Below are positions 258 to 18,685 of a stretch of DNA of 64,000 nucleotides, piece after piece. Location: assembly GCA_944329365.1 (NCBI GenBank), contig CALVIC010000003.1, forward strand, positions 8,437-72,436, in the 5' to 3' direction. The translations under genes were made by a program, and so were the position numbers. The stretch comes from an uncultured Bacilli bacterium. GTDB lineage: Bacteria; Bacillota_I; Bacilli_A; RF39; UBA660. Within the stretch, counting starts at the first letter, position 1; every line of letters starts with the position of its first letter. The notes under the pieces are model-generated. The model was not told the origin of the DNA. It searched no databases and worked only from the letters and a program-made list of their open reading frames with translations.

Positions 258-3200
258 TTAGCAAATGTTTTCTAATACTTTTTTTATAATTTCTAATGCA
301 TATTTTCTCTTCAACCTATGGTGAAAAGCTTGATTATTATAATTTCGTAGACAATTATAACAAGAAGTGTTTTCGTCACAACAATTCTGATTAACTTTGT
401 TTTTAGCACATTTAAATACTTCTATAAACATACTCTTATCCATGATTCTTTTTACATGGCCTGCTCCGCCAGGAACATTATCAAAAACAATTAAGTCATA
501 ATTATTATATTTATTCTTTACCACTAAACCATCTATGTCTTTCCTTTCAATAGAAAATTCTTGACTAATTCCTTCTAAAATGGCATATAAAGTGGATAAA
601 GCTTTATCTTTATCGTTTAGATTTTTAATTGATATTTTGGCAACATCTGTTTTAAATTTATGTCCTAATGAAATATGCCATAAATCTTCATCCGGACAAT
701 TAAATCCCTTGAAATCTACATGATTCATTTTTATTTTTTCACTTCCATATGCCGTTTTATCAATTTTTGTATATCCACACGTTTTACACATATAGAATGG
801 ATTTTTGTTGAGAATAAGCAATTCATCATCAGAGGATGTTTCAATTGTTATATAATTATTAGCACCAATCATTAATTTGTTTTCATCTTTTTTTCCGTTC
901 CCAATGTATGATGTCATTCCTGTATAAGTTTTTTTAGGTTTTTTCCTTGTACTTTCATTGGTTTTTCCTGTTTTAAATCCATATATTGGCTCAATAAAGA
1001 AGTTGTTAATAATTTCTTCGTTAGGTGCTTCACAATATTGACATTTCTTTAATTTTTCTGGAAATAAACTTATATTTTCTCTTTCGCAAAATGGACAAGT
1101 GTAATAATAATTTCTAGCAAATTCTTGTGTTTTTGGGAGAGAAATATATCTCGATGTATACTTTATTTTATCAACAATTATTTCTGATTCGGGTGCATAT
1201 TCTGAAATAGCTATACTTAAGTCTCTACTTAGATCATAATCATTATTTATTTTACCATTATCCCATATTTCTAAATTTACTAAATCTATTGGAAATCCAT
1301 ATTTTGGTATAACATTATATTTTGTTAAATTTTTTATTACACTATCTTTTTTTATTTCGTTTACTTGTGTTTGATAATAATCTGCATTTTTAAAATCATT
1401 TTCTTCTTTAGCTTTTTCTATTTCAAAATTATATTTATTTATTGTATCAATTATATTTGTGTAAAATCCTTCTAAATAATCTCCATTATTTTTTATTTCA
1501 TCTATCCATTTATAATCAGAATACTTATTATATGTATTTGAATCTAAAATTTTTGTATTAATAAACTCGTTCAGATCATCTGGATTTTGCTCAATATATT
1601 TTTTAAATTCCTTAATTCCGTCATGGCATACTAAACTATCAATATTTTTAAAATATTCTGGATACTTTCTAAAAAAATACCCAAATGCCGTTGCCATCAA
1701 GTGTCTTAAAATAATTTTTTCATTTGTATTATTAAATTTTGGAGGTTTTATTATTCCTGAAATCATTTTATTTGGATCATCGAAATATGTATAATCATGT
1801 GATGAATAACCACAATATGTTAGTATAAAAGCAGAACTATCTTTACTTCTTCCCGCTCTTCCCGCTCTTTGAACATAATTAGCAGGTGTAGGTGGAACAT
1901 TTCTCATAAAAACCGTTTCTAGTGAGCCTATATCAATGCCCATTTCAAATGTGGTTGAACAACTAAGAATATTTATTTTTTTATCTTTAAATTCTTTTTG
2001 ATATTCTTTTGCCGTTGCTTGTGATAATTGGGCGGTATGCTCTTTAATGTTGATTCTTTCTATTTTTTTAGTCTGATATTCTTTACGATAATAATTATTT
2101 TCAAATATTTTGTCAGGGTCACATTCTTTCAATATTCCATTACAATCCTTGTTTGTACAAACATTATGAACATTATATATTGTTAATTGACCACAATTTG
2201 AACATATATAGTATTGAGTATTTTTGTAGTTATCAAGTTTATATTTACTTGCAGATATTTGATAGACTTCATCACTTATTGAATTACCACTTTCACATAT
2301 ATTACCTTCTACTCCTATTTCATTAAAGATAATCTCTATAATATTACACGCTTCTTCGTGAGAACATTGAGCAACTTTCATTATATATTTTGTATACATA
2401 TTATCTCTGGATGAATAAACAGGTAATAAACTTCTTATATTATTATATTTAGTTTCAGTCTCATTTCTTTTGGATGATGGCTGCTTTTTTAACTTTATAT
2501 AATTATCAAATCTTCTATATGAAAGATATTCTTGTTTTTCAGAATTATTTAATCCAGAAATATTATATTCAATTGCGGGCGTAGTTCTAAAAATATTAAA
2601 TAATACATTAATAATGTTTTTTAAATCGGTTTTATTAATATTATATTTTCCAAATTCATTACTGATATCTTCTTCAGAAATTTCTTCAAAGAGATCATCT
2701 AAATCTAAGGTAAAGTGAAATAATCCTAATCCTTCAGCACTATAATTTCCGTCAATATTTAATAATTCATATAATGCCGTGATCCAAGCTTGTTTATTAC
2801 TTGATATTTTTTTGTTTGTGAACAAATTATATTTTCTAATTAAAGCATCTAATTGAGATAATAAATTATCAAATTTTATAGTTTGATAGTTATTATTTTT
2901 TATAATTTCCCATATTATTCTTTTTCTTAAAAATCTTTCATGGTTTCCTTCAAAAAAGCTTGCAAAAAAACTTGCTTGTTGTCTACTATCTGAAAAAGTA
3001 ATGAATTGTTTTACATATGGTTCTTTTGCCATTTTTAAAGTTTCGTTTCTCTTAAAAAGTACTGTTTTATAATCAGTTGTTTTTTCTGGTTCGTTGTTAT
3101 CAATGGCTTTGTATAATAATTGTGCTAGAATAGCTGTTGCTTCATCTTTTCCTATATTAATACTTCTTACTATTCCATTTTTTTGATGATGTAGACAATT

Positions 3201-4934
3201 AGGACATTCATTAATATTATTTTTCATGGAGTTAGATTTAACTTTGTAAACTGTTATTTTATATTTTTCGTCACATTTACATTTGTTATTATTTATTTTT
3301 TCAGAACTACATAGATAACCACACTTGCCACATAATTCATATTCTTCACAGTTGCTTTTATCAATATTTTCTGTTTCAGCACTATTTGGAATCATATAAT
3401 AATCTACTTCTTTTATTTTATTATCACCATAATTTTCATAAATATCAACATCATCATTTTTTCTTAAATAACCATCTATTTCTTTTCCAAAAAGGAACGA
3501 AGTATTACAATACCGACATGTACCAAGTTCAAATGTATTTAATTCATTTATCTTATTTGTAGGCGTCAAAGTTAAATATTTTTTCGGATCAATAGTAACA
3601 AATGCTCCAGATAAAGTTCTAATAAACGTATGATATTTTATATCATATAAATATTTATTATTCTTTTTTGCAACATTTATTAAATGAATTAATGAAACCA
3701 AATCTTGATCTTTATCAAAACCATTATCTTTTAGTTGTTTTATTATATCCTTAAATTGGCGATTTTTACTTGCTAGAAGATTATACAAATCATAAATGTT
3801 TTTATCTTTAATTAAAAGTTCATAGAGTATTCCCTCTATATCATTACTATTTGTTAATGTATATTTATGGGCAATGTTTTCTATTATATTTTTATTTTCT
3901 AAGTTTTCTTCTAATTCGCAATATATATCTGGATTTATTTGATATTCAATGTTTGAATCATCCAAATTTTTTCTAGTAGAAAAAATTATATCTGACTCCG
4001 AATAATTACTAGAAGTAAGTGATTTTGCAAATTCAATGATTGTTTGTTCATCTTTTCCCTTTTCACCTAATGTAGCACTAGTTAATATAAATTGCGGCTT
4101 TTTTTCAATTAGTCCAGTCAGTCTTTTTAGTAAATATGAAACTTCAATTCCTAAAGCCCCGCTATATGTATGTGCTTCATCTAATACAATAAATTTCCAA
4201 TGTCTCAAATATTCTTTATTAAAAATTTTAAAGTCGTTGGGTCTAATCAGGAGATATTCTAACATGGAATAATTTGTAAATAATAAGTGTGGAGGATTAT
4301 TTCTTATTTCTTCCCTACTTATTACCTCGTTTTGTGGTATTTTTGTGCCAAATTTTTTGAATAATTCTTCACGCGTGTTTTTATATTCTTCTTCTGTTTC
4401 TCCAGTAAAAAATCCAAATCTTATTTCAGTATAATTCATTAATATATTTCTTAGTCTATCCATTTGATCATTTACTAACGCATTCATTGGATATAATAGA
4501 ATAGCTCTTATTCCTGGCCCGTTATCTCCTTTTTCTATATCACGTAGTATTGAATTTAATATTGGATATAAAAAACTTTCTGTTTTACCTGATCCAGTGC
4601 CAGTTGTAATGACAACATTTCTACCATTTGTAATTTTTCTTAATGCTTGTTCCTGATGATAATATAATTTTTGATTAAAATCAATGTTATTAAGTTTTTT
4701 AAATAAAGGACTAACAGTTCCTTCCTCAATCAAATCATTAATTGATTTGGATGAAACAAATGGCAAGCTGATATTTAAAAAAGGACCTTTGTATAATACT
4801 TGTTTATCTAACTCCCTTTCAAACTCTGTTTTATATTCGTTATCTTTAAACGAAAATGTATCTTTTAAATATTCGCGAAATTCACTTTCAATGAATTTGG
4901 CTTCTTCTATAGGATTTAACTTTTTTTCTTTCAT
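258..4934 (-). CDS. Giant SF2 DExH helicase with a C-terminal DUF1998/MrfA-type zinc-binding domain (DruE-like)
   Basis: 1558 aa. Helicase motifs: motif I VVITTGTGSGKTESF, motif II FIVLDEAHTYSG, motif III LTSATLG, motif VI YVQRAGRAGRS near aa 1022. The C-terminus NVPGGAGHV...CCDENTSCYNCLRNYNNQAFHHRLKRKYA fits the DUF1998 signature. Several CxxC zinc-ribbon pairs are present. The ATG lies 3 nt after the stop of the upstream ORF. Confidence 0.6.
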   Translation of the reverse strand: MKEKKLNPIEEAKFIESEFREYLKDTFSFKDNEYKTEFERELDKQVLYKGPFLNISLPFVSSKSINDLIEEGTVSPLFKKLNNIDFNQKLYYHQEQALRKITNGRNVVITTGTGSGKTESFLYPILNSILRDIEKGDNGPGIRAILLYPMNALVNDQMDRLRNILMNYTEIRFGFFTGETEEEYKNTREELFKKFGTKIPQNEVISREEIRNNPPHLLFTNYSMLEYLLIRPNDFKIFNKEYLRHWKFIVLDEAHTYSGALGIEVSYLLKRLTGLIEKKPQFILTSATLGEKGKDEQTIIEFAKSLTSSNYSESDIIFSTRKNLDDSNIEYQINPDIYCELEENLENKNIIENIAHKYTLTNSNDIEGILYELLIKDKNIYDLYNLLASKNRQFKDIIKQLKDNGFDKDQDLVSLIHLINVAKKNNKYLYDIKYHTFIRTLSGAFVTIDPKKYLTLTPTNKINELNTFELGTCRYCNTSFLFGKEIDGYLRKNDDVDIYENYGDNKIKEVDYYMIPNSAETENIDKSNCEEYELCGKCGYLCSSEKINNNKCKCDEKYKITVYKVKSNSMKNNINECPNCLHHQKNGIVRSINIGKDEATAILAQLLYKAIDNNEPEKTTDYKTVLFKRNETLKMAKEPYVKQFITFSDSRQQASFFASFFEGNHERFLRKRIIWEIIKNNNYQTIKFDNLLSQLDALIRKYNLFTNKKISSNKQAWITALYELLNIDGNYSAEGLGLFHFTLDLDDLFEEISEEDISNEFGKYNINKTDLKNIINVLFNIFRTTPAIEYNISGLNNSEKQEYLSYRRFDNYIKLKKQPSSKRNETETKYNNIRSLLPVYSSRDNMYTKYIMKVAQCSHEEACNIIEIIFNEIGVEGNICESGNSISDEVYQISASKYKLDNYKNTQYYICSNCGQLTIYNVHNVCTNKDCNGILKECDPDKIFENNYYRKEYQTKKIERINIKEHTAQLSQATAKEYQKEFKDKKINILSCSTTFEMGIDIGSLETVFMRNVPPTPANYVQRAGRAGRSKDSSAFILTYCGYSSHDYTYFDDPNKMISGIIKPPKFNNTNEKIILRHLMATAFGYFFRKYPEYFKNIDSLVCHDGIKEFKKYIEQNPDDLNEFINTKILDSNTYNKYSDYKWIDEIKNNGDYLEGFYTNIIDTINKYNFEIEKAKEENDFKNADYYQTQVNEIKKDSVIKNLTKYNVIPKYGFPIDLVNLEIWDNGKINNDYDLSRDLSIAISEYAPESEIIVDKIKYTSRYISLPKTQEFARNYYYTCPFCERENISLFPEKLKKCQYCEAPNEEIINNFFIEPIYGFKTGKTNESTRKKPKKTYTGMTSYIGNGKKDENKLMIGANNYITIETSSDDELLILNKNPFYMCKTCGYTKIDKTAYGSEKIKMNHVDFKGFNCPDEDLWHISLGHKFKTDVAKISIKNLNDKDKALSTLYAILEGISQEFSIERKDIDGLVVKNKYNNYDLIVFDNVPGGAGHVKRIMDKSMFIEVFKCAKNKVNQNCCDENTSCYNCLRNYNNQAFHHRLKRKYALEIIKKVLENIC

Positions 4935-4937
4935 TTG

Positions 4938-7900
4938 CTACCTTCTTTCTACAATTAATAAACAAGAAAATATATCTGTTGCTCTATTACTTTCGATTTT
5001 ATCTAAAACTGTTCTATTGTCGAAGTCAATAAATAATCCATCACCATCTTTTGTAATACTTGCTTCTATAAGTCCATCGTTAATATCACTTGTAAAGTCA
5101 ATTTCTATCGGGTTTAAATTATTAAACATATGTTTTTGACCTTTTTTAAAAGTATAAATGTTTCCGATAAAATAAGTGTCACTTATTCTTTTTGTTATTT
5201 CAATATATGTATCATAAAGTTTATAGGTTTTGCGGGTAAAATTATTACCAATCATTTGATCAAAATCAACTGTATATATTTTAAAATACCTTCCAACAAA
5301 GTCGTCTAATGATATGTAAGAAAAATTTTCTTTATATAGAATTCTTTCTTTTCCTAATAATCCTGTTTTATCTTCTTTGATTAAAATTAAATATGTTTTA
5401 AATGAAGTTAAACCATTTACTATAAATTGTGTTTCACTACTTTCTATTTTTTTGTTAAAAATTATTTGTTTTTTTTCGTCTAATATCTCATAAGAGATAT
5501 TTCCTCGACCATAAATTGATACATTAGCTTTTAAATTCTTTGCTATTGGGTCATATTTTAAATTAGTTTTTTTTGCATTTACAAAACATTTGTTATAACA
5601 TTGTATAAGTCCTTTTACGTTATCTCCATCAAGAAATTTTAAATAAAAAATGTCTTCTTTATTATACGAAATTAACGTTCCTACATCCAATTCTTTACAA
5701 AATAAATTGTCTTTGGAATATAATGTTGTTAAAACTGTTCCATCTTTTTTTACTATATATACCTTATCATAAGCAATGCCATTTGTGACTATTTTACTTG
5801 AAAATTTAATATCTTTTGTCCAAATATATTCATTGCATCTTTTCCACATATTATTATCTATACGATATATTGGAATATTAATCGGAATTATAAATCCAAA
5901 CTCATATTTATCAAAATATATTTTATTTATGTCATTCGAATTTAAATTAATTATTTTTTCAAAAATATTTTTAGTAAAAGAAGTGCTTATTTTGACATAT
6001 AATTCATTATCAGAATATTCATCAACTAAGTAATTAAAGTCTTTGTCAACAACAACTTTAAAAACATTTGTTTTATACATTTGATTGTTTTTATGTTCCT
6101 CTATCGTAATCGTGTGAATGCCTTTTTTTAAATTGTTTATATTTATAACAAACTGCGTGCTTGCATTTTTATGTTTTTCAGTATAATTTAAATGTGTTAA
6201 TTTGTTTCTTACTCCATCTATATTTATAATGATATCATCACATGATAATTTTGTTTCATAGATTAAATATTTAATATACTTATAAATTTTCAACTTTTCT
6301 TTATTGTTGAAATAAAAAGCATTGGCTTCCACGCCGATTAAACCTGTTTTTTGTAGTGAAGAAAAACTAAATATATCATTACCAATTTTAACAGTATCTC
6401 CTTTTTTTACGTTTAAATATAAAATTTGATAATTTTTGTTTAGTAACTTATTTCTCCATGAATTTTCAATGTTAACACCATTAACGCAAAAAATAGCTAA
6501 GCCTTCATAGTCATTATTATTTTTGATTTCTCGTCCTTCTGAATTAAAAACAATATAATCTCTATATAATAAATTTTTACTATCATAAATGGTCTGATTT
6601 CCACATAATAACTTATATTCTAATTTTCCTAGAGGATTTTCAATCAATATATTCGAACATTCAATACGATATCCTCCTATAATATCGTATACATCCAAGT
6701 CTTCTTTTGAAATGATTTCATCACCATTTGAAATAACAAGTTTGAGTTTTGTATAATCATATGAGTTTTTTATTTTATGATTTGGTATTGATAAATAGAT
6801 ATTGGAACTATTTAGAAGAAATTTAGGCTCCCATCTTGATGATAATTCGATTTTTCGTTTGCTTTTCTCTTTAATCTCTTTGTTAACTTTTCTTTGCCAG
6901 ATTTCAAATCCGTAATTATAATATTTGTTATTTATAGAAGGAATTTGATTTTTCCAATAATATTCATCAATTATTTTCAAAACATTGCCACTTAATTTTA
7001 TTAAATCATTAATTCCTTTCTCATCAGTAATTAAATCTTTTGTTGTTTTAATTAATTTGTATGTTTTGTTTGTTACTTTTAAATCGATTTGATCATTTTC
7101 AAAATTATTCCCCTTAATTCCCTCATAAACAAATAATAATTCTTCTGATAAGTTTGTTTTTTCGGATATTGAATAATCAAAGTTTAGTTTATAAACATCA
7201 TATAAAAAATCAAAAAATGATGGCAAGTATTTTTGAGGTACTATGTCATTCTTTAATACAACCGAAATTATTCTTTCAGTTATTTCTTTTTGAGTATTAT
7301 ATATACTAATAATATTTCTAATTTGTCCTTCTATTTTTTGCTCTGAAAAATTATTATATATATATTTATAGATTTTTCTAACATGGTTGTAAAAATTTCC
7401 GTCATAATTAATTAATCCAATTATCGTCAAAGAAATAAATATAATGTCATAATCTATATCATATATTGAGCATTTGGTTTGCAATAATGACTGCAATTCT
7501 TCTTGTGCTTTATAGTGTATTTTATTGACTAATTTTGCATCATTAATTATATCTATTATGTCATTTCCTATTATTTCGTTATTTTTTAATTTGTACTTAA
7601 TTAGCCTTAGTTTTTTTAGATTACCATTTTCATATAATATTTCTTTAAAAGATAATATGATTTCTTTTTGTTCTTCTTTGCTCAAATAATTGTCTTTTAA
7701 GTATTTATCAATTATTTCATTAACTTTTGAAAAAAATGAATTTTCTAAATTTGATTGATTATTTTTTAACCATTTCTTTAATTTTATAATTTCTTGAAAA
7801 TTAATGATATCATCTGCTTCAATTCCTTGGATTATACCAATTAGTTCACTTTCATTATCTATTTTATTTTTAATATTATTATAATAGTTAGTAAACTTAA

Positions 7901-8111
7901 TTATTTTTTCTTTTTCTTGATTTGTTATTAAGTTATCTTTTAAAATTTGATTTAACAATTTTATAATTTTAATACAATAAATATTATTATCATTGTTGTT
8001 TTCTGTGATCCATTTTTTTAACATTTGAATTTCTTTTTCATTTATAATATTATCGTAATTTATTGAATTTAAGATTCCAAGTAATTCAGAAAATTTATTA
8101 TAATACTTCAT
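4938..8111 (-). CDS. Large protein of unknown function; DruH-like by size and position only
   Basis: 1057 aa. The N-terminus has two ~58-aa helical repeats (aa 17-73 and 97-155). The rest is Asn/Lys/Ile-rich and looks beta-rich. No catalytic motif recognised. GGGAG RBS about 10 nt upstream of the ATG. Stop TAG at 4938-4940 lies 3 nt before the helicase ATG. Confidence 0.4.
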   Translation of the reverse strand: MKYYNKFSELLGILNSINYDNIINEKEIQMLKKWITENNNDNNIYCIKIIKLLNQILKDNLITNQEKEKIIKFTNYYNNIKNKIDNESELIGIIQGIEADDIINFQEIIKLKKWLKNNQSNLENSFFSKVNEIIDKYLKDNYLSKEEQKEIILSFKEILYENGNLKKLRLIKYKLKNNEIIGNDIIDIINDAKLVNKIHYKAQEELQSLLQTKCSIYDIDYDIIFISLTIIGLINYDGNFYNHVRKIYKYIYNNFSEQKIEGQIRNIISIYNTQKEITERIISVVLKNDIVPQKYLPSFFDFLYDVYKLNFDYSISEKTNLSEELLFVYEGIKGNNFENDQIDLKVTNKTYKLIKTTKDLITDEKGINDLIKLSGNVLKIIDEYYWKNQIPSINNKYYNYGFEIWQRKVNKEIKEKSKRKIELSSRWEPKFLLNSSNIYLSIPNHKIKNSYDYTKLKLVISNGDEIISKEDLDVYDIIGGYRIECSNILIENPLGKLEYKLLCGNQTIYDSKNLLYRDYIVFNSEGREIKNNNDYEGLAIFCVNGVNIENSWRNKLLNKNYQILYLNVKKGDTVKIGNDIFSFSSLQKTGLIGVEANAFYFNNKEKLKIYKYIKYLIYETKLSCDDIIINIDGVRNKLTHLNYTEKHKNASTQFVININNLKKGIHTITIEEHKNNQMYKTNVFKVVVDKDFNYLVDEYSDNELYVKISTSFTKNIFEKIINLNSNDINKIYFDKYEFGFIIPINIPIYRIDNNMWKRCNEYIWTKDIKFSSKIVTNGIAYDKVYIVKKDGTVLTTLYSKDNLFCKELDVGTLISYNKEDIFYLKFLDGDNVKGLIQCYNKCFVNAKKTNLKYDPIAKNLKANVSIYGRGNISYEILDEKKQIIFNKKIESSETQFIVNGLTSFKTYLILIKEDKTGLLGKERILYKENFSYISLDDFVGRYFKIYTVDFDQMIGNNFTRKTYKLYDTYIEITKRISDTYFIGNIYTFKKGQKHMFNNLNPIEIDFTSDINDGLIEASITKDGDGLFIDFDNRTVLDKIESNRATDIFSCLLIVERR

Positions 8112-8237: not shown

Positions 8238-10730
8238 TTATTTTAAACATTTCATTATTTTTTCTTCGTCAGGTATTTCATCTGTTTTGCATCTTATTAA
8301 TGGAAGACAAGCTTTTTCAAATATTTTATTTTTTAACTCATCATTATGAACTTGATGAATATTTTCTTTGTTAAATGGATTATGATAACCACCATCTACT
8401 TCGATGGCTAAACGATATTCAGAAGATGCTCTATCATATATTAAAAAGTCAACATGGGAATGAATGTTCTTTTTGAATTTCATTTCTTCTTTTGTTAGTG
8501 AATCTAAGTCTTCAATGATTTCATCTAATGGTACATGAGTTATGATATCATAACCATCTATATGATTTTTGTTTAATATTTTTAATAATTCTTCATAAAA
8601 TATATCTTCACTTATAATTCCTGTCCTTTTAGCTATTTTTTGTCTTTCTCTATAATACTCTTTATATAGCAAATCAAAACAACTGTGTAGTTTACTGTTT
8701 ACTATTTTACCATCTTGATACTTTATGTACTTAATTAGATCTTGGATATTACCATTTGTATTAGTTATGGCAGAGTCATTGACTACTAGAATAAACTTAT
8801 TTATAGCTCTTGAAACAACAACATTTAATCTATTAGGTTGATCAGTAAAACTCTTGATTTTATTGTCGACACTTGAAAATATAATTATATTTTTTTCTCT
8901 TCCTTGAAATTTATCTACTGTGTCAGCCTGAACGTTAGAATAGTTTTTGAATTCTTGTTTTAATAGATTACTTTGATTTACATATGGAGAAATAATACCA
9001 ATCGATTCATCATTATATGTTGAAGGAAGTATTTCTTCTCTGATTATATCTAATTGTCTTCTATTTACGTGATCTCGAGCGTGGTTACCAACGCTTGTAA
9101 CATACATTTGTAATGTATCTTTAGATGGTTTTGAATTAGATAAAATAATTAATTCATTATTATAAAATTTTAAGTTACAAAAGTTTATTATTTTTGGATT
9201 GCACCGGTAATGTTCTTTTAACATAGTTTTGGTTATATCAGGATAAAGTTCTATAACTGAAGATAATAGGTTATGATTTCGATAACGATATTCGTTTGAT
9301 ATTTTATACTTTAACCAGATTTGATCACTTGTAATGGCATTTTCATTTGTAACAACGTTGGATAGCTGTTTTAAATCACCAACAATAACAACATTTTTCG
9401 CACATGATAGTGATAATACCGCAGTTACTAAGTCTACCTGTGATGATTCATCGACAATTATATAATCATACATAATATTTTTTGATAAGCTTGATACTAA
9501 AGAATAGGTTGTACTTAAAATAACAGGATAATCTTTAAGAAACTCATTTGATATTCTTTTTAAATCAGATTTTTCATATTTATTTCGCTTAGCCTTTTTA
9601 TATCTTTTGGCAAGTCTATGTTTAAATATTTGCATCGATATTTCTGTATAATGTTTCATTTCTTCTTTAATATTATAGTTATTTAAACTTGTTTTTAATC
9701 TGTTAATTTCTTTTGTTAGATTAGTAATACTTTTTTTATAATAAAGATTTTTTAATTCTAAAATTATATCATTTAAGTTATTGTCAAAAATATCAAATGG
9801 TAAAAGTCCATATTTAATAAAATATTTTATTTTTGAATATATAGAGATTGTCGATTTGTTTTCTAATTCAAGCCATAATTTTAGTATGTTTTTATAATTT
9901 GGATTACGCCACCATTTTATAGTAATATTTTTTGTTCTTGTTTTATAATATTTTGTAAATTGTTTTGATTCTAATTTTATGGCTTCTAGATGCTGAATAT
10001 CTTTGGCAAGTTTATTTTGATCTTCTAGTTTTCTATTTAACTCATATTCTTTATTGTTTAGAAAATTTATTTTGTTTTCAGCTTCTTCATCAGTTAGTAA
10101 CCATGCATCTAAGTTTGGTAAATCTTTTTGATTTTCAATAAATTCTGTTTTGTTTTTTTCTTTGCCAAGAAAAGCAACCAGAAAATCTAAATTATTGCTT
10201 TTTAACTTATCATAAACATTTTGAATAGCTGCATTATTATTGGAAACAACGGCAACCGTTTCTCCATTCATAACTAAATTAGAAATAATATTTAAGATTG
10301 TTTGAGTTTTTCCTGTTCCTGGAGGACCTTCTATAACGCTTATTCTATTTGTAATTGCTCTTTCTGTAGCCAGTTTTTGGCTTTGATTAAAGCCGAAGGG
10401 AAACCTTACATGTCTAACCATTCTATATGCTGGTGGTAAAGTACCTTTTAAATAACAATTTAAAATACTATCTTTATTTAAGTTATCTAACTTTTTATAT
10501 CTTGAACCAAGAACATTATATTCACCAACCACTATGCTTATTTTTTCAGCTAATTCTTTAAAATATTTTAGATTGTTTTCAAAATTATTGTTTTCTATTT
10601 TTATTCTTTCATTTGAATAATTATATTGTTTATCACTGCTTTTAAATTTAATAATATAGTTTTTATTATTTAATTTTATACTTTCAATCTCTTTTGTTTT
10701 ATCTACATCGTCAATTAAAATTCTTCTCAT
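8238..10730 (-). CDS. SF1 (Upf1/DNA2-like, COG1112-type) helicase fused to a C-terminal DUF559/Vsr-like restriction-endonuclease-fold domain
   Basis: Helicase motifs: Walker [14 protein letters not shown], motif II YIIVDESSQVD, VVIVGDLKQL, EHYRCNPKI, DKFQGREKNIIIFS, LNVVVSRA. The C-terminal ~130 aa contain HVDFLIYDR...YRLAIEVDGGYH. The ORF-track start at 10736 is TTG. ATG at 10730 with GGAG 7 nt upstream is preferred. Confidence 0.65.
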   Translation of the reverse strand: MRRILIDDVDKTKEIESIKLNNKNYIIKFKSSDKQYNYSNERIKIENNNFENNLKYFKELAEKISIVVGEYNVLGSRYKKLDNLNKDSILNCYLKGTLPPAYRMVRHVRFPFGFNQSQKLATERAITNRISVIEGPPGTGKTQTILNIISNLVMNGETVAVVSNNNAAIQNVYDKLKSNNLDFLVAFLGKEKNKTEFIENQKDLPNLDAWLLTDEEAENKINFLNNKEYELNRKLEDQNKLAKDIQHLEAIKLESKQFTKYYKTRTKNITIKWWRNPNYKNILKLWLELENKSTISIYSKIKYFIKYGLLPFDIFDNNLNDIILELKNLYYKKSITNLTKEINRLKTSLNNYNIKEEMKHYTEISMQIFKHRLAKRYKKAKRNKYEKSDLKRISNEFLKDYPVILSTTYSLVSSLSKNIMYDYIIVDESSQVDLVTAVLSLSCAKNVVIVGDLKQLSNVVTNENAITSDQIWLKYKISNEYRYRNHNLLSSVIELYPDITKTMLKEHYRCNPKIINFCNLKFYNNELIILSNSKPSKDTLQMYVTSVGNHARDHVNRRQLDIIREEILPSTYNDESIGIISPYVNQSNLLKQEFKNYSNVQADTVDKFQGREKNIIIFSSVDNKIKSFTDQPNRLNVVVSRAINKFILVVNDSAITNTNGNIQDLIKYIKYQDGKIVNSKLHSCFDLLYKEYYRERQKIAKRTGIISEDIFYEELLKILNKNHIDGYDIITHVPLDEIIEDLDSLTKEEMKFKKNIHSHVDFLIYDRASSEYRLAIEVDGGYHNPFNKENIHQVHNDELKNKIFEKACLPLIRCKTDEIPDEEKIMKCLK

Positions 10731-10864
10731 ACACAAACTCCATTACTTTCTTAGTATATCATAATAAAAATAAAACACCAATTTTGATATGATGTTTTGA
10801 ATATTATATTAATTAAAATTTATATGATAAAAAGATTATATTCTAATTAAAGAATTTTTTCTTT

Positions 10865-13800
10865 TTAAATTTCTGATAATTCTTTACTAATTTCTCTCAT
10901 TGAACCAATTTGCTTTGAAAACATTTTATCCCATGCATCTAAACATTTTACTATTATATCTTCTTGATTAGTTTCATACACAGCATCAAATAATTTTATT
11001 ATGAGATAATTTAAATCATTATATTTATAATAATGTGATGATGGATTGTTTATGTCATATTGTTCTATAGTGATATTTATAACGTTAAATATTAAATCAC
11101 TATATTTAATAACGTTGTTAAATTTCTTTGTTAAAATATGAATAAATTTCTCTATAAATTCCTGTGAATCTAATGTTTTAAGTAATTCTATAATAAACTC
11201 ACTATCTTCCGATAAGCTTAATCCATTTTCTCCAAACAATTTATATGGATTTATTCTAACATCTTTGTATGTCGCAAATATTTTTATGATTTGTTTTATT
11301 TTCTCTTTATATTTATCGTATTTTATGTAAACCAATAACATGTCTATAACTGATTCTTTTATGATTTTATCATTACTCTTATTTAATATATCATCTTCGA
11401 ATTTACTATAAAAAAGATAAAAATCAACGAGTAGATAAGAATAAATTCTTTTTATATATTCACTATTAATATTTATTCCATGTAAAATTATTTTTATTAT
11501 GTCTTCTTTATAAGTTACACTCTTTTTGTATATAAAATGAAGAATATTCCTACTTGAATTATATCCATAAATATAATCATTAGAATATAGAGAAATTATA
11601 TTTCTGCTTGCAAAATCAAAATCATATTTTAAAAGCCAGCTTAAAATCGTCATACTTGAATATTTGATAACTTCATCTTTTGACATAATCATATCTTCAG
11701 CTACTTCAATAAATTCACTTGCATATTTTAAACTGTTTGATAATATATTACCAATGGCTGAGGCAAGCTTATAAATAGACGAATTTATTACTTTCACTTC
11801 TAATACTTCAGCTTTATCTCTATAACCATTATCGTTATCAAGAATATAATTACTATCAATTTTATTTTCTTTTATATCACTATATATTTGCATTAACATT
11901 TTTATTGTTCCTTTGTTCCAATTGACTTCTTCTTTTTTAGCAATGATTTCACAAATAAATGGTGCATATTTGTAATTGTCATTATATTTAAAAGTATTAA
12001 ATAGTATTTCCAACTTATCAATAGAAATCTCATCCAATACATTAGATGAAGCTAATGTGCTATATAATGTAATAACATATTCCGTAATAATAACAGAAGA
12101 ATTTATTATAAACAAGTCAATAAATGCATTAGGATTTTGCTGTATATTTATTGATAATGACGACTGAAATTCATATAAACTTCTATCTATGAATACGCCT
12201 TTTTTGCTATCATATATAGATTCATGATTATTTATTATTTTTTTATTTGTTAATATTTTAAGCCAACTTTGCATACTAATTTCTTTGTCCGCAATTGGTG
12301 ATATAACACTGCCATATTCAAAATGTTTTAAATCAAAAATCGAAAATTTTATATTATAAAATTTTCTATTCAAGACTTGTTTTAGCTGTTGAGCTTTGCT
12401 ATTTAAATATTTATCAGGTATTACATTTAATATTTCATATTGAAAATCTCCCCAATAGCTTATATAATTAGCATTACTGAAATCTTTTTTCTTTAGTTCA
12501 ATACCTTTTTTACATCTTTCAATTATATCTTCTGGCTTATAATTTATAACATTAGTCATCATTTTGTCTAAGGTATCTTTGTCAATATGATTTATAAATT
12601 TTTTTATTATTTTTTTTAGTATACTTATTGACTGTTTTTCTTTGCTAGTATATTCAAAACAGTTATTATTAATATCATTAAATAAATAACTAATTACTTC
12701 ATTTGCAGCTTTTAATGGCATACATAAAAATCCATATAAAATCAACTCATTACAAATATAAAATCCTTTATTAAGATAACACTTAAATAACTTCCAAAAT
12801 TCTTTATAGTCTGTCTCCACTATATTTTTAGTTGCTTCTTTTAACAATGAAATTATAATTCTCTGGACTGTCACTTCATTCCAATCATTGTTATTCCAGT
12901 CGTATAAATTAAACTTTTCTTTTGTTTTTGGAATTAATGGTAATAATGTATTAATAATTGTTATATTTTCTTTAACATTATGTTTTCCTTCATAATCAAT
13001 AAGATGCTTTTCAGAATATATTATATTTTGCTTTTTTAATTGCAGATGTTTTCCTAAAAATTCAATATATTTAATAGCTCTATATTCATTACATTTTATT
13101 AGTTCATCCAAATCCAAATATGAATTTATTAATAAATCGCTATACTTTTCATATATTTTTAAGCGTAGTTTGAATAATTCGTCAGTATCATATACTACGT
13201 CAATAGGTAATACTTCATATAATTCTTTATCAATTTGGTTATCTATAAAAAGATATTTTTTTATGAAATTTGTTTCAATTTTGTCATAATTATGATTAAT
13301 ACTTTTTAATAAATCAATCACATATTTTTTCTTTAAATGGTCTTGAATCCATTTATCAAAAACTCCGTTCGTTATTAATAGTTCAATCATTTCTTGATGA
13401 TTCATAAAGACTGTGTTTATAAAAATTTCAAACAAAGCTTTTTTATTATAATTATCAAGTATATATTGTTTGATTTTACCAGATAAATTCGTAGAAAGTC
13501 CTAACACTTCAAATGCAACATACTTCATATATGTTCGAATATTTTTACTATTAATAATTGAGTTTATACAATTCAAAAATTTCTCATCATCAATTTCATA
13601 TATTCGTTCTAAAAACATCTGTAATTGATATCTCTTATTTGGTAATTGCTTATTATAATCACCTATAAGAGATTCTATTGGTTTTTCTTCAAAATACTCT
13701 TCTATCATTTTTTCTACTGAAAAATAATCTAATAAACTTTGATGAGAAAAGGATATCATATTATCACTGCGTATTAAAAATGATTGTGAAAGTAAAAATT

Positions 13801-15400
13801 CAATAGAATGAGTATAATTACTTAATAAAAACTCTGGTAATGATATTTTACCTAATTTATTCATTTTATTAACTATTTCATTTTTTAAATTCGATAAATT
13901 GCATTCAGAAATACCTTTTTTTTCTCCTTCTTTTATAAGCTGTTGCCACCAGCTTGATATTAAATCACAGGTTGTACGAATGCCAGTTATATCATTTTCT
14001 TTTTTTATTTTCATAAAGATAAATAAATTGCTCGGAATTTTCAATAATTTTTTTAATTTAGAATTATAATTTTTATATTCTGGTCCAACAATAGAATTTA
14101 CGCAATCATCATTTAAACTATTAATATTGATTTTGACCCAGTTTTTTCTATTCTTTTCTATCATTCCTATAAACGACGGGTCGTTTTCAACATCAAAAGT
14201 TCTGCATACTAATATAATAGAAATTTTAATTTTTCTATCAAAATTGATATTTCTAATTTCTTCAATAATATCATTGCAAATATCTATGGAACTTCGACTA
14301 TGTATAGTAGTCCATCTTAATGCATCTAATTGATCAAATATTAAAACACATTTTTTGTTATTTGAAAATTTATCTAAAATTGTTGAAAGATATGTAGAAA
14401 ATCCTAATTTTTTACTCCATTCTAAACTATTATATTCTGGCATATATTTATCTAATTTAATTGCTAAATATTGATAGTCATTGGTTTCTAAGAAATTAAT
14501 TAATCCATATATTATTCCACTTTTACCATATCCTGCTTTGCCTGATATCATGATTGATTTTTCGTTATTAATGTTTGCAATTATATTTTCTAATTCTGGT
14601 CTATTTATATAATTATTATTTATTAATTTTATGCTTTCTTTAAATTTTTCATTTAATCTTTTTATAATATTAAAATTTGAGTCATCATTAGCTAGAGTGT
14701 TTAAAAGCATTTTATTTGTTTTAAAAAAAGAATACAAAAATGATTTGTCAATCTCTTTACCCATTATATCTTCGTTACATACCAAATCCACAATTTTTCT
14801 ATAGTTATCTTTTGGGTTTCCATGAAATAGCATCTTAATTTGCATTAATATGAATTCTGTTATTGTATCATCAGGCATATTATTTACTTCTGTTCTTCGA
14901 AGATAATCCATTGCTTTTTTAACGTCTTCCATATTATTGTAATCAAGTTCAAGTTCATGACAATATTTTTTAAAATCAGAAAAAGTTGTTGTGCTTTTTT
15001 TTATCTGCTCATTATAAAATAATTTAACATCTCCATTGTTGTTTTTTGCTCTGCTTATTAAATCTGATAGACTTATAAAGGATATTGGAGATTCAAGAAC
15101 TACAACATTATCTTTAGACCTGTCTAAGTGAAATTTCCATTTTTTTAGTAAATCGTAGGATTTTAGTCCAGAAAAAGTCCAATTATTATTACTTCCATTA
15201 CGAAATTTACACTGAATATATTTTTTAGTACCATCAAAATTTGTAATGACTATATCAGTTGCTACTTCGTTATCACCTAAGCCTTCAAACATACAGCTAC
15301 TAACTTTTTCTTCAACAACATCTAATAATGACTTTATAATGCAATTTCTTTCATATCTATTTCCTAATTTATCTGCCCTTCCAGCTGGTTCACTAGCCAT
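10865..15400 (-). CDS. Nuclease-NTPase-repeat giant: N-terminal Cap4/DUF4297-like PD-(D/E)xK nuclease, central P-loop STAND-like NTPase, about 1000-aa alpha-helical repeat C-terminus (Avs-like)
   Basis: 1511 aa. N-terminus reads LGNRYERNCI...FEGLG...ATDIVITNFDGTKKYIQCKF. Walker A ISGKAGYGKSG (aa 286-294). Walker B-like CVLIFDQLDAL. The remainder is leucine/isoleucine-rich helical sequence. AGGAGG RBS upstream of the ATG. Confidence 0.55.
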   Translation of the reverse strand: MASEPAGRADKLGNRYERNCIIKSLLDVVEEKVSSCMFEGLGDNEVATDIVITNFDGTKKYIQCKFRNGSNNNWTFSGLKSYDLLKKWKFHLDRSKDNVVVLESPISFISLSDLISRAKNNNGDVKLFYNEQIKKSTTTFSDFKKYCHELELDYNNMEDVKKAMDYLRRTEVNNMPDDTITEFILMQIKMLFHGNPKDNYRKIVDLVCNEDIMGKEIDKSFLYSFFKTNKMLLNTLANDDSNFNIIKRLNEKFKESIKLINNNYINRPELENIIANINNEKSIMISGKAGYGKSGIIYGLINFLETNDYQYLAIKLDKYMPEYNSLEWSKKLGFSTYLSTILDKFSNNKKCVLIFDQLDALRWTTIHSRSSIDICNDIIEEIRNINFDRKIKISIILVCRTFDVENDPSFIGMIEKNRKNWVKININSLNDDCVNSIVGPEYKNYNSKLKKLLKIPSNLFIFMKIKKENDITGIRTTCDLISSWWQQLIKEGEKKGISECNLSNLKNEIVNKMNKLGKISLPEFLLSNYTHSIEFLLSQSFLIRSDNMISFSHQSLLDYFSVEKMIEEYFEEKPIESLIGDYNKQLPNKRYQLQMFLERIYEIDDEKFLNCINSIINSKNIRTYMKYVAFEVLGLSTNLSGKIKQYILDNYNKKALFEIFINTVFMNHQEMIELLITNGVFDKWIQDHLKKKYVIDLLKSINHNYDKIETNFIKKYLFIDNQIDKELYEVLPIDVVYDTDELFKLRLKIYEKYSDLLINSYLDLDELIKCNEYRAIKYIEFLGKHLQLKKQNIIYSEKHLIDYEGKHNVKENITIINTLLPLIPKTKEKFNLYDWNNNDWNEVTVQRIIISLLKEATKNIVETDYKEFWKLFKCYLNKGFYICNELILYGFLCMPLKAANEVISYLFNDINNNCFEYTSKEKQSISILKKIIKKFINHIDKDTLDKMMTNVINYKPEDIIERCKKGIELKKKDFSNANYISYWGDFQYEILNVIPDKYLNSKAQQLKQVLNRKFYNIKFSIFDLKHFEYGSVISPIADKEISMQSWLKILTNKKIINNHESIYDSKKGVFIDRSLYEFQSSLSINIQQNPNAFIDLFIINSSVIITEYVITLYSTLASSNVLDEISIDKLEILFNTFKYNDNYKYAPFICEIIAKKEEVNWNKGTIKMLMQIYSDIKENKIDSNYILDNDNGYRDKAEVLEVKVINSSIYKLASAIGNILSNSLKYASEFIEVAEDMIMSKDEVIKYSSMTILSWLLKYDFDFASRNIISLYSNDYIYGYNSSRNILHFIYKKSVTYKEDIIKIILHGININSEYIKRIYSYLLVDFYLFYSKFEDDILNKSNDKIIKESVIDMLLVYIKYDKYKEKIKQIIKIFATYKDVRINPYKLFGENGLSLSEDSEFIIELLKTLDSQEFIEKFIHILTKKFNNVIKYSDLIFNVINITIEQYDINNPSSHYYKYNDLNYLIIKLFDAVYETNQEDIIVKCLDAWDKMFSKQIGSMREISKELSEI

Positions 15401-15695: not shown

Positions 15696-17570
15696 TTATT
15701 GATTAATTTTACTTTTAAAATAATATTGTAATTTTTTGTTTGTACAGTACACATAACAACCTTTCATTCCTCTTGTCATAAGTGTTCTATATGTGTTTTT
15801 TATAATTTTATCTGCTATTTCATTTGCTACCTCTTGTCCTTGCTCTTTTGCAATTTTATGTATTCCTTTCAATGATTGATCAGTTTTAGCTCTTTTTGTA
15901 TAATCAGTAACAATATGACCATCTTCATACCTAATATCATCCCCAATTATTACTCCAACATAATCAAATTCTAATCCCTGACAAGTGTGAATACAACCAA
16001 CTTCATTTACTGATGTTGAATCAATTGCCCAGGTTTGAGAATTACCTAAATTCCAGCTCATTTCAAAATTATATTCTGGGATTACTATATCGTGAACATT
16101 AGAATTATTTTTACCATTGCTAATCCAATTCCAACAATATCCTGCAACCAATCTTGATTTATTATTTATTTTATTTTTTTCTTCTATTAATCTTCTTAAT
16201 TCATTTGGATTATCTATTACTTTAAAATCATAATCAAAATCCATACCATCGAAGTTTGCTGTTTTTCTTATTTCTAAAACGTTATCTAGCCAAGCAAGAT
16301 AACCATCTGACCCATTACATCTAAATTGACTTTCTAATTCAACTACTTTAATTCCGGCGTTTAATTCTTTAGCAAATTTTTTTATTTCATCTACTGACCC
16401 AATATCTTTTAATGTAACTTTTTGGTCTTCATCAATGAAAAATATTGAAAAATTTGAAGCATTAATAATTTCTTTAATTTGATTTTCTCCTAGATTTTGG
16501 AACATTCCTGATTTTGCATTTAATCTATGTGCTTCATCGACAATTAAGCAATCAACTTCATTGCTTTCGGCTTCTGTAAAATTTCCTGAACCTTGAAATA
16601 AATTGTTAATATATGACATTTTGAAAGAACCTTTTAATTTATCTCTAAATACTGCTCTTGGAGCAGCGTTCTTTGTTACATAAAAACATGTCATATTTCG
16701 GCTAGTAAGTTCTACTAATAAGTTAATTGCTAAAACTGATTTTCCAGTTCCCGGTCCTCCTTGTACTACCAATACATTTTTCTCATTTGCAGATAAAGTA
16801 TCGATTGCCATTCTAATAGCATCTTCATAAATGACCTTTTGCTCATCAATCATATTAAATTCTTTGTTGCCCTGTAACATTTTTGTAAGAGAGTCTTGAA
16901 GTCGTTTTGATGGTCTTATTTTTCCATTTTCAATTTTATATAGAGTTTCTCTATCGTCTCCTTCAAGAATATATTTTTTTATAAAATTTCTTAATTTTAT
17001 AAAATCATTTGCTCCAAACATAGGTGCTTCATTTATATATTCTTGATATTGACTACTACAAATCGGGTCATCTTTACTTAATACATAGTTATGTAAAAAG
17101 GCACAAGGATATAGGCCTATATCTTCTAATTGTACAGTTTCATTAAAATCTCTAATTAAATTTGCATAACTCATAGCTTGATAGGAAGGATGAGTCACTT
17201 CTCTTATGGCATGGCCAGTAAATGTTGAAACTATTCCGTCTTTACCTTCAACTGCTTCACATTTTTCCCACTGCTTTAATTCTATAATAATAACCGAATT
17301 TTTTTTATTTTTATCTCTTCCTGATAAAATAAAGTCTATTCTTTTAGATGTTGTTGGAATATTAAATTCGATTGCTACACCTGCATTATCTGGTATTTCT
17401 TTGTCATCTAAGACTCCTCTCATATATTGCATAGAATTCTTCCAAGAATTTAATTGGGGATCACTTGCTCTTCCAAAATACTTTTGATACTTTTCATATA
17501 TTTTATTTACAATTAAATTTAAATTTACATCATTAATGAATCCTGATTTTACTCCTTCATACACCAACAT
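15696..17570 (-). CDS. DUF2075 family protein (Schlafen-group-III-like ATPase/helicase with an N-terminal nuclease-like module)
   Basis: 624 aa. The N-terminus is typical of the family: SWKNSMQYM...IEFNIPTTSKRIDFILSG...VIIIELKQWE. Walker A VVQGGPGTGKSVLA, Walker B CLIVDEAHRL, then FFIDEDQKV. AAGGAG RBS. Start lies 28 nt after the MazG stop. Confidence 0.75.
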   Translation of the reverse strand: MLVYEGVKSGFINDVNLNLIVNKIYEKYQKYFGRASDPQLNSWKNSMQYMRGVLDDKEIPDNAGVAIEFNIPTTSKRIDFILSGRDKNKKNSVIIIELKQWEKCEAVEGKDGIVSTFTGHAIREVTHPSYQAMSYANLIRDFNETVQLEDIGLYPCAFLHNYVLSKDDPICSSQYQEYINEAPMFGANDFIKLRNFIKKYILEGDDRETLYKIENGKIRPSKRLQDSLTKMLQGNKEFNMIDEQKVIYEDAIRMAIDTLSANEKNVLVVQGGPGTGKSVLAINLLVELTSRNMTCFYVTKNAAPRAVFRDKLKGSFKMSYINNLFQGSGNFTEAESNEVDCLIVDEAHRLNAKSGMFQNLGENQIKEIINASNFSIFFIDEDQKVTLKDIGSVDEIKKFAKELNAGIKVVELESQFRCNGSDGYLAWLDNVLEIRKTANFDGMDFDYDFKVIDNPNELRRLIEEKNKINNKSRLVAGYCWNWISNGKNNSNVHDIVIPEYNFEMSWNLGNSQTWAIDSTSVNEVGCIHTCQGLEFDYVGVIIGDDIRYEDGHIVTDYTKRAKTDQSLKGIHKIAKEQGQEVANEIADKIIKNTYRTLMTRGMKGCYVYCTNKKLQYYFKSKINQ

Positions 17571-17598
17571 TTTTCATACTCCTTACTACATTAATAAT

Positions 17599-17916
17599 TT
17601 ATTGTAATTTTGTATATTTTGTACTTACTCCCTTAGCTTTATCTATGGGATATTTTTTAGCAGTAATTTTCATCTTATCTAAAATAATTTGTTCGGGGTC
17701 TGCTCCCAATTTATCTGCAAGCAATAATGAATAATTAAGTACATCAGCAAGTTCTGATTTTACCTCATCAATATTATAATTAGAGTTCCATTGAAAGCAT
17801 TCTAATAGTTCGCCTGCCTCTATAGAAATTGATTTTGCTAAATTCTCTGGACTATGAAATTGATCCCAGTCTCGTTCTTCAGTAAATTGTTTTATCTCTT
17901 TTATAAGATTTTTCAT
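17599..17916 (-). CDS. MazG-like nucleotide pyrophosphohydrolase
   Basis: 105 aa. ERDWDQFHSPENLAKSISIEAGELLECFQW with the ExxE metal motif is typical of small MazG-like pyrophosphohydrolases. Confidence 0.8.
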   Translation of the reverse strand: MKNLIKEIKQFTEERDWDQFHSPENLAKSISIEAGELLECFQWNSNYNIDEVKSELADVLNYSLLLADKLGADPEQIILDKMKITAKKYPIDKAKGVSTKYTKLQ

Positions 17917-18123: not shown

Positions 18124-18684
18124 TTACTTTTTATTTAGCTCATTTTTTACCCATCCAAGTAGTTCAGTTAATACTTTCTCTCTATTAACTGATGTATTTA
18201 CAAATTTTAGCTTATATTTTTTTGAATCTTTTTCAAATTGTTGGCTTTTAGCAATTTCTCTTTCAGCTTTTTCTAAAAGTGTTTCATCTGATATATTTCT
18301 AGTCCAATCTTTTAATCTTTGATAAGTTCTCCAGTTAGAAAGGCATTCTTCTTTAGTTAAGTCCGGGTAACCAAAAACTATAATAATATTATTTTCAAAC
18401 AATTTATAATCTTCCGGTTTAAAATCGACGGTATCTAGAATAACGTATAAACTTTCACTATATTTAACACTATAATCAAAATACGATTTTAAGAATTTTC
18501 GATACTCAAGGATTTCTTTCATAAGCCCTGTTTTTACTGTTTTATCTTTGTATATTTCATCTCTGTATGCAAGTCTTACTAAATCACCTGATATAATCTG
18601 ACATGACTTAAGTTCTTTCATTAATATTTGTGAAAACGTACTTTTACCTGCTCTAGAGGCACCAATTAAAACTATTCCTTTCAC
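18124..18684 (-). CDS. Small P-loop NTPase/kinase-like protein
   Basis: 186 aa. Walker A at the extreme N-terminus (VLIGASRAGKSTF). GTG start lies 1 nt after the TAA of the upstream ORF, which suggests translational coupling. Confidence 0.5.
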   Translation of the reverse strand: MKGIVLIGASRAGKSTFSQILMKELKSCQIISGDLVRLAYRDEIYKDKTVKTGLMKEILEYRKFLKSYFDYSVKYSESLYVILDTVDFKPEDYKLFENNIIIVFGYPDLTKEECLSNWRTYQRLKDWTRNISDETLLEKAEREIAKSQQFEKDSKKYKLKFVNTSVNREKVLTELLGWVKNELNKK

Positions 18685-18685
18685 G

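Follow-up and report, generated by a model that had tools for sequence, protein, structure and literature searches.

A compact Upf1-like helicase joined to a DUF2726 nuclease: a partner-independent relative of Hhe in a defence island of an uncultured Bacilli bacterium

Proteins that join a helicase to a nuclease rank with the most frequent designs of bacterial immunity. Here we analyse a stretch of 64,000 nucleotides from an uncultured Bacilli bacterium of the lineage RF39/UBA660 (assembly GCA_944329365.1, contig CALVIC010000003.1, positions 8,437 to 72,436; hereafter the window, numbered from its first letter), and in it a gene for an 830-residue protein in which an Upf1-like helicase of superfamily 1B (SF1B) is followed by a predicted PD-(D/E)xK nuclease of the DUF2726 family. 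The gene resides in a defence island and is independent of any fixed partner gene, and to judge from sequence its product is a compact relative of the anti-phage protein Hhe. We find it somewhat probable that it encodes a self-contained, single-gene immunity protein of the helicase-nuclease class, which would use ATP to track along foreign DNA and cut it.

The open reading frame (ORF) is uninterrupted on the minus strand (8238..10736), and the plus strand is full of stops. Its mechanical start, a TTG at 10736, gave the 832 residues first claimed for the protein; the ATG at 10730-10728, with a GGAG 8 nt upstream and at the same Met where the orthologues start, is the likelier beginning and yields 830. 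A chance ORF is unlikely, given a frame of 2.5 kb within DNA of 24% G+C and thousands of full-length homologues. Purifying selection acts on all three modules of the protein: the ratio of nonsynonymous to synonymous substitution rates (dN/dS) is 0.11 against a 95%-identical orthologue in the closest relative (genome G024), 0.145 against orthologues of 74% identity, and 0.10-0.20 when each module is taken separately.

Three Pfam families match the whole protein above their gathering scores: AAA_11 (residues 116-463, E 1.9e-24), AAA_12 (490-653, 1.3e-24) and DUF2726 (710-828, 5.9e-14). The first two, at 87.3 bits each against a cut-off of 27, place it among the Upf1-like SF1B helicases (COG1112), and DUF2726 (PF10881, clan PDDEXK) scores 52-56 bits against a cut-off of 24.7, with Pfam family, fold and acidic residues all in agreement. 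Scanned alone, the last 150 residues match DUF2726 at E 6e-15, whereas MTES_1575 and DUF559 reach E 0.0016 each and stay below their cut-offs (18.9 bits against 38.2 for MTES_1575). The original prediction, made from the letters alone, had named an SF1 Upf1/DNA2-like helicase followed by a DUF559/DUF2726/Vsr-like endonuclease; the helicase class is borne out, and of the nuclease assignment DUF2726 and the Vsr-clan PD-(D/E)xK type stand, but DUF559 does not. Every SF1B-type motif it had quoted is found in the translation: GPPGTGKT at residues 135-142, DESSQ at 427-431, GDLKQL at 451-456, YRCNP at 508-512, FQGRE at 608-612 and VVVSRA at 637-642, followed in the nuclease by HVDFLIYDR...LAIEVDGGYH at 759-783. 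Across 79 sequences the Walker A and DExx motifs and motifs III, V and VI are invariant, as are nuclease residues H759, D761, F762, E777, D779, G780, Q793, D797 and K800, and the active sites of helicase and nuclease therefore look intact.

Sequence matches in the Protein Data Bank (PDB) to IGHMBP2, UPF1, DNA2, SETX/Sen1 and nsp13 confirm the Upf1-like SF1B assignment. In a full AlphaFold2 model built with 79 homologues in the alignment (mean predicted local distance difference test score (pLDDT) 85.2, predicted template modelling score 0.75), a beta-rich N-terminal domain with helices is followed by RecA-like domain 1A, which is split by an insert, then by domain 2A, a helical linker and an alpha/beta C-terminal domain; the Foldseek matches of this model in the PDB are SETX, IGHMBP2, UPF1, Aquarius, Sen1 and DNA2. 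The coiled-coil-like insertion of about 200 residues that had been noticed in the letters is real, and in the model it forms long helices at 214-265, 319-350 and 354-377. Pfam finds no match to the insert alone; it sits where Upf1-like helicases carry their stalk or accessory 1B/1C elements and is thus a trait of the family rather than an oddity of this protein. The N-terminal domain, in which D10, T12, Y38, Y56, A61, N72 and L74 are conserved family-wide, likewise gives no Pfam match at E ≤ 10 when residues 1-115 are searched alone. Folded alone, the C-terminal module (pLDDT 85) has as its best fold matches the restriction enzyme BstEII (E 5e-4, probability 1.0), TnsA (probability 0.97), BpuSI, bunyavirus cap-snatching endonucleases and the restriction endonuclease-like fold protein 3ijm, which is the endonuclease fold that the original prediction had made a check on itself. 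A sequence profile of the module against the PDB returned nothing significant, the best match being Cap4 at E 0.35. Together these models point to a predicted PD-(D/E)xK nuclease with a restriction-endonuclease-like fold.

Which known system does this protein resemble most? Gao et al. are said to have described Hhe in 2020 as a single-gene anti-phage protein that combines a helicase with a Vsr-type endonuclease, and here the same order recurs in one chain, an SF1B AAA_11/AAA_12 helicase and then a Vsr-clan PD-(D/E)xK nuclease, together with the stand-alone state and the defence setting. As a comparator we used a 1541-aa Hhe-like protein of the same class (DUF4011 at E 2.8e-33, AAA_11, AAA_12, MTES_1575). 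BLASTP aligns the two colinearly, with 43% identity around motif I and a second segment that begins at motif II, crosses domain 2A and extends into the nuclease strands and the next helix (E 1e-12), where HVDFLIY...LAIEVDG of the window protein faces KVDLAIK...LAIECDG; the Hhe-like character proposed earlier is thereby upheld. So is the proposal of a compact variant, the differences being mostly omissions. Hhe measures roughly 1500-1900 aa against 830 here; it begins with DUF4011, which gives no match in the window protein (none at E ≤ 0.01 in the whole protein and none at E ≤ 10 on residues 1-115), where an unrelated domain of 110 aa stands instead; its insert between the helicase motifs is about 300 aa longer; and the comparator continues for about 200 aa beyond the nuclease, where canonical Hhe carries DUF3320, whereas in the window protein only 2 residues follow the DUF2726 match. 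The nuclease families differ as well, MTES_1575 in Hhe and DUF2726 here, although these are sister families in Pfam. Against the NCBIfam model of Hhe (NF042953, 'DUF4011 domain-containing anti-phage protein Hhe') the window protein scores 78.3 bits, far below the cut-off of 2000, and the PADLOC Hhe model (PDLC02194) matches the helicase core only, at E 2.9e-18; the protein is thus no member of Hhe as curated. Hhe is a validated single-gene system with helicase and nuclease domains, with candidate triggers in DNA-metabolism genes of T7 and a mechanism that is still open (bioRxiv 10.1101/2024.10.10.617714).

Hhe-like proteins are themselves common in the class. DUF4011-helicase-MTES_1575 proteins match NF042953 at E ≤ 1e-50 in 77 of 199 genomes (for example locus L121, 1486-6111), genomes with a recoded TGA of the Mollicutes type among them. 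None reaches the curated cut-off, and Hhe annotation therefore probably misses the whole lineage.

The resemblance to other systems is more partial. Type II Mokosh, described by Millman et al. 2022 (bioRxiv 10.1101/2022.05.11.491447), also places a COG1112/Upf1-like SF1 helicase and a nuclease in a single chain, MkoC, which is reported to be monomeric (bioRxiv 10.1101/2025.07.10.664194). Of the PADLOC models, MkoC scores highest on the helicase core (E 2.1e-47, over profile positions 426-963 of 1136), and to that extent the suggested likeness to Mokosh II holds, but the MkoC nuclease is of the PLD (HKD) kind and that of the window protein PD-(D/E)xK. The lack of a PLD domain had been remarked from the letters; Pfam agrees, finding no PLD-family match, and the window protein is therefore not a Mokosh II protein; for Mokosh type I, no MkoB was found among the seven neighbouring proteins, and no recurrent neighbour among 66 independent locus groups. 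ProA (NF058533, 'anti-phage protein ProA', 1903 positions) and the PADLOC candidate PDC-S37 (1550 positions) have a related helicase core, are about twice as long and match only in part, ProA at 94.4 bits against a cut-off of 1500, short of membership, and PDC-S37 at E 1.6e-35; our literature search found no paper on ProA. Nhi and Nhi-like proteins likewise unite a PD-(D/E)xK-type nuclease and an SF1 helicase in one phage-defence protein, but their helicase belongs to the DUF2075/SLFN-g3 family, and the Nhi model misses the window protein while matching its neighbour at 15696-17570; the Nhi nuclease is N-terminal, that of the window protein C-terminal. DNA2 and RecB/AddA offer a mechanistic analogy only, that of an SF1 motor in cis with a PD-(D/E)xK nuclease processing the tracked strand: DNA2, whose iron-sulfur nuclease precedes the helicase, and RecBCD/AddAB, which have partner subunits, are core repair enzymes, whereas the window gene is accessory, mobile and partner-less.

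The family to which the protein belongs is large. A word-indexed homologue search returned 7,409 matches, and nearly all of the best 120, which we inspected, are 820-915 aa long with the identical Pfam set; names, where any of these 120 carries one, are 'AAA domain-containing protein' or 'superfamily I DNA and/or RNA helicase'. The family spans no fewer than 498 clusters at the 50% identity level and at least 8 phyla, with lengths conserved at about 830-935 aa. When the C-terminal module was used as a search profile, 498 representative clusters (50% identity) matched at E ≤ 1e-30, and in every full-length match the module is the extreme C-terminus of an 850-935-aa protein, which indicates that this form of the nuclease exists essentially only as this fusion. 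The named genomes include Bacteroidota, Bacillota, Pseudomonadota, Campylobacterota, Spirochaetota, Bdellovibrionota, Melainabacteria and others, at about 40-46% identity. An earlier description of the protein as an undescribed compact variant thus needs qualifying: no named or tested member turned up in the literature, but the variant, far from rare, is a very large unnamed family.

The gene is accessory and horizontally transferred. In a maximum-likelihood tree the sequences cluster by taxon except for well-supported pairs that cross phyla (Bacteroides with Eubacterium, Helicobacteraceae inside Clostridia, Gastranaerophilales with Alphaproteobacteria). Plasmids carry copies in Bacteroides/Parabacteroides and in E. 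coli, where the gene sits among insertion sequence (IS) elements (WP_236479692.1, an E. coli plasmid homologue, has 34% identity), and further copies lie on Ralstonia and Caballeronia replicons in the plasmid collection; phage contigs yield only partial matches or fragments, in three gut 'Bacteriophage sp.' contigs. Nor is this the distribution of a core repair helicase, the pattern that the original prediction had named as speaking against itself: occurrence is patchy, in 6 of the 41 species-level genomes of the genus (one copy divergent at 45% identity and one a fragment) and in 10 of 41 relatives. It is possible, though we would put it a little short of even, that the AAA_11/AAA_12-DUF2726 proteins of 830-935 aa form a distinct and abundant single-gene immune family ('mini-Hhe') so far outside the defence catalogues, with an Upf1-like motor, a Vsr-clan nuclease and a small N-terminal sensor as the minimal unit, and with DUF4011 and the long insert of Hhe as dispensable add-ons.

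Does the protein act alone? The gene for a 1511-aa nSTAND3 NTPase lies upstream, co-directional and at the 128-nt distance originally given, and it had been suggested that the two might form one unit; the NTPase would then sense and the helicase-nuclease would execute. We consider such a system of two or more genes largely refuted, with scarcely any probability left to it. We compared 93 homologue loci by tblastn of the window neighbours, and we clustered all flanking ORFs of 66 independent locus groups. None of the 93, all outside the present arrangement, holds a homologue of the 1511-aa protein or of the 1057-aa protein encoded downstream, and a downstream DruE-like helicase finds just two weak partial matches. 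Neighbour families recur in 5 of the 66 groups at most, and then at variable positions; none of the recurrent clusters is an integrase or transposase family, and the size, strand and spacing of neighbours vary freely. In the closest relative (locus L101, G024:C33), where the helicase is 95% identical, still under the purifying selection noted above, and the flanks are 90-96% identical, the 1511-aa, 1057-aa and DruE genes are all missing, and a 1066-aa ORF (11672-14872) stands downstream of the helicase in the position that the Druantia-like pair occupies in the window. Orthologues of 74% identity in the same hot-spot (L001-L013) also lack the 1511-aa gene. Adjacency does recur in one place, L107-L109, where a 1510-aa gene (79% identity) precedes an 833-aa helicase-DUF2726 gene (74%), which indicates that it is inherited within part of the genus. 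Conversely, the 1511-aa family, itself strictly length-conserved, occurs without the helicase: a homologue of 63% identity adjoins AbiEi/AbiEii and an integrase, and in Fusobacterium the gene lies among housekeeping genes, so the 1511-aa protein is probably a single-gene STAND defence protein in its own right. An operon of YprA/Druantia/ARMADA type with the downstream pair was rejected too, because Druantia, ARMADA, BRIGADE and TALON list no SF1B/DUF2726 component (PMC12458937) and no homologue locus contains a full DruE homologue.

The single-gene reading is further upheld by a leader of its own. Six loci with six different upstream genes align to about -85 from the ATG and are unrelated beyond, and on the 3' side similarity stops just past the stop codon; conservation therefore covers the leader and the ORF as one unit, and in the explanation that we favour the gene would be transcribed from this leader. 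An inverted repeat within it occurs only once in the window and in the genome. We considered it as a strong terminator and rejected that role, the RNA hairpin being weak (-9 kcal/mol, z -1.6); regulation through the repeat by the WYL protein of the hot-spot was equally unsupported, given the single copy and none near the WYL gene.

The genomic setting is a variable defence hot-spot, in which Avs-like, Nhi-like and Druantia-like genes surround the helicase-nuclease. The first 20 kb of the window have 22-26% G+C against 30-34% elsewhere in it, and the region is bordered on one side by tRNA-His (20241-20316), a YunG-UDG fusion gene and a 186-aa P-loop gene; its opposite limit is formed by WYL and PfkB genes, which lie immediately to the left of the window. 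Compared with genome G018, core genes nearby share about 90% identity, and island genes only 66-77%. The cargo differs in every related genome examined: beside the 74% orthologues lie a type I restriction-modification (R-M) system, a methyltransferase with an MwoI-like restriction endonuclease (REase), SieB, DUF6119 and DUF2441 with SLFN_AlbA_2, and in relatives the hot-spot also holds type II R-M, SduA_C, RVT_1 and HNH. Through this turnover the helicase persists in one hot-spot across lineages 74-95% identical. Further afield, the nearest neighbours across phyla include type IV REases, PbeA, GajB, DRT, NERD and ResIII helicases; the within-genus hot-spot is the stronger argument for a defence setting than this cross-phylum tally. 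In P. aeruginosa, a large DUF4011 (Hhe-like) gene is the conserved boundary marker of the core defence hotspot cDHS1 (bioRxiv 10.1101/2022.11.11.516204). An 'anchor gene' role by that analogy was unsupported here, the helicase and the YunG-UDG gene (7 of 41 genomes) both being patchy; that even this flanking gene is so restricted indicates that the whole region is accessory. We looked for flanking direct repeats, Rfam families and a tRNA that would betray an integrating element; only chance AT-rich repeats and the tRNA-His at the island edge came up.

How might such a protein work? In the reading that we favour, the Upf1-type SF1B motor would bind single-stranded DNA wherever free ends, forks or other intermediates of replication and recombination expose it in an invading phage or plasmid and translocate 5'->3' with ATP, and this movement would bring or license the C-terminal DUF2726 PD-(D/E)xK endonuclease to nick or degrade the bound DNA; the N-terminal domain and the helical stalk would probably be the sensing or auto-inhibitory part. 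We only infer the anti-phage role, the DNA rather than RNA substrate, the polarity of translocation, the trigger and the mode of self-sparing. Several observations weigh against this reading. Many Upf1-like helicases work on RNA, and RNA is also the substrate of some PD-(D/E)xK domains. The fold matches of the C-terminal module have low to modest TM-scores (0.25-0.41), and Vsr is absent from the top 50. The matches of the defence models of PADLOC and NCBIfam (MkoC, MkoA, PDC-S37, Hhe, ProA, PLuB) are confined to the helicase core; PADLOC has no model that reaches the nuclease domain, and every NCBIfam match is far below its cut-off. Our literature search found no paper that names or tests the AAA_11/AAA_12-DUF2726 family, and DefensePredictor lists only a small stand-alone DUF2726 protein. 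Within the genus the 1511-aa gene adjoins the helicase in two lineages. Finally, ordinary genes, P-type ATPases and GNATs for example, are frequent among the cross-phylum neighbours, and PADLOC matches are no rarer in ORFs 7-10 kb away than in the nearest neighbours; this control makes the near-versus-far tally uninformative as a test of defence-island enrichment, and a measured local enrichment cannot be claimed.

The main mechanistic rival keeps the immune role and changes the substrate: as proposed for Mokosh, RNA would be cut by the PD-(D/E)xK domain as the motor follows phage transcripts or RNA-DNA hybrids. We regard this as unlikely. The helicase core scores best against MkoC, MkoA (E 9.6e-46) and the IGHMBP2-family model TIGR00376, the closest solved structures (SETX, IGHMBP2, UPF1) are RNA helicases bound to RNA, and the bunyavirus fold matches are cap-snatching RNA endonucleases; however, the DUF2726/DUF559/MTES_1575/Vsr branch and the best fold matches BstEII, TnsA and BpuSI are DNA enzymes, as is DNA2, which is a close structural match too, the candidate triggers of Hhe, the nearest architecture, lie in phage DNA metabolism, and the PLD nuclease that defines Mokosh is absent. 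Alternatively, the protein might serve a mobile element, through competition between elements, exclusion of a rival plasmid or integrative and conjugative element, or an addiction-type function, with phage protection as a side effect. The plasmid-borne copies, the E. coli one among IS elements, and the partial matches in phage contigs are in keeping with this, but most of the 66 independent loci are chromosomal, no recombinase, integrase or transposase family recurs beside them, and the gene is kept in one hot-spot by lineages of the genus that are 74-95% identical; we hold it to be distinctly improbable. A housekeeping enzyme of DNA repair or replication, analogous to DNA2 or AddAB and without immune role, appears less probable still: DNA2 ranks with the best structural matches, helicase and nuclease are commonly fused in repair, and some homologue loci lie among ordinary genes, yet the patchy occurrence in the genus and its relatives, the low-G+C variable island, the cross-phylum transfers and the plasmid copies all speak against it, and most congeners of this reduced host genome (assembly 1.3 Mb) manage without the gene.

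The significance of the self-contained immunity reading lies in the family more than in this window, which contributes little past one more intact member of something common rather than exceptional and is of value mainly as an experimental target. At half the size of Hhe, the family is widespread, from E. coli and Bacteroides plasmids to a reduced genome of 1.3 Mb, and not represented in the PADLOC and NCBIfam defence models that we tested. If its members protect against phages, a sizeable gap in defence annotation would be filled, a function could be assigned to thousands of 'AAA domain-containing proteins', and a minimal system would be at hand for dissecting activation and discrimination between self and non-self; if the mini-Hhe reading is true, it would offer a compact, tractable model of how foreign DNA is told from a cell's own without modification. 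If they do not protect, this is merely another accessory helicase-nuclease.

Table 1. Features of the helicase-nuclease gene, its leader and the surrounding hot-spot (window coordinates unless stated otherwise)
Feature	Position	Strand	Basis or remark
Coding sequence, helicase-nuclease, 830 aa	8238..10730	minus	stop TAA 8238-8240; orthologue starts, full-length homologues
N-terminal domain, residues 1-110	10401..10730	minus	five short beta-strands, then three helices (AlphaFold model); conserved family-wide
SF1B Upf1-like helicase core, residues 111-671	8718..10400	minus	AAA_11, AAA_12; motifs I, II, III, V and VI intact and invariant
All-helical insert, about residues 200-400, between motif I/Ia and motif II	9531..10133	minus	AlphaFold model, pLDDT mostly 85-95
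C-terminal module, residues 672-830	8241..8717	minus	conserved helical linker and predicted DUF2726 PD-(D/E)xK nuclease
DUF2726 nuclease domain, residues 710-828	8247-8603	minus	Pfam
Conserved leader, about 85 nt	10731..10815	minus	six-locus alignment
Inverted repeat arms (9 bp) AAAACATCA and TGGTGTTTT	10790-10798 and 10772-10780	minus	leader
Extended -10 TGATATACT	10753-10761	minus	leader
Ribosome-binding site GGAG	10738-10741	minus	leader
Variable defence hot-spot, about 18-20 kb	1-20316, plus G000:C3:1-8436		22-26% G+C, about 1.5% of genome
YunG-UDG fusion gene, hot-spot flank	18124-19600	minus	present in 7/41 genomes of the genus
1511-aa nSTAND3 NTPase	10865-15400	minus	family strictly length-conserved, 1504-1544 aa
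DruE-like YprA helicase (1558 aa) and 1057-aa protein, 3 nt apart	258-8111	minus	PADLOC DruE1 E 4.5e-181
MazG-like gene (105 aa) and SLFN-g3/DUF2075 helicase (624 aa; 15696-17570)	15696-17916	minus	weak PADLOC matches: AbiO, Nhi, PDC-S41

The remaining genes of the island have features of their own. Members of the 1511-aa family are found in Fusobacterium, Lachnospiraceae and Paenibacillus and show a weak C-terminal match resembling type II REases. The DruE-like helicase, which follows the 1057-aa protein, terminates in an MZB zinc domain, without a nuclease at its C-terminus; the 1057-aa protein has no match in Pfam, PADLOC or NCBIfam, and the two genes have the look of a type III-like Druantia pair in which the partner has gone unrecognised. 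The MazG/SLFN-g3 pair also occurs near helicase-DUF2726 genes in unrelated genomes, with both of its genes in L066 (Niallia), L061 and L079 and the helicase in L093. At L107 an RVT_1 gene lies between MazG and the helicase, and the SLFN-g3 gene is 94% identical while its neighbours are 74-80% identical, which suggests a recent exchange of the cassette.

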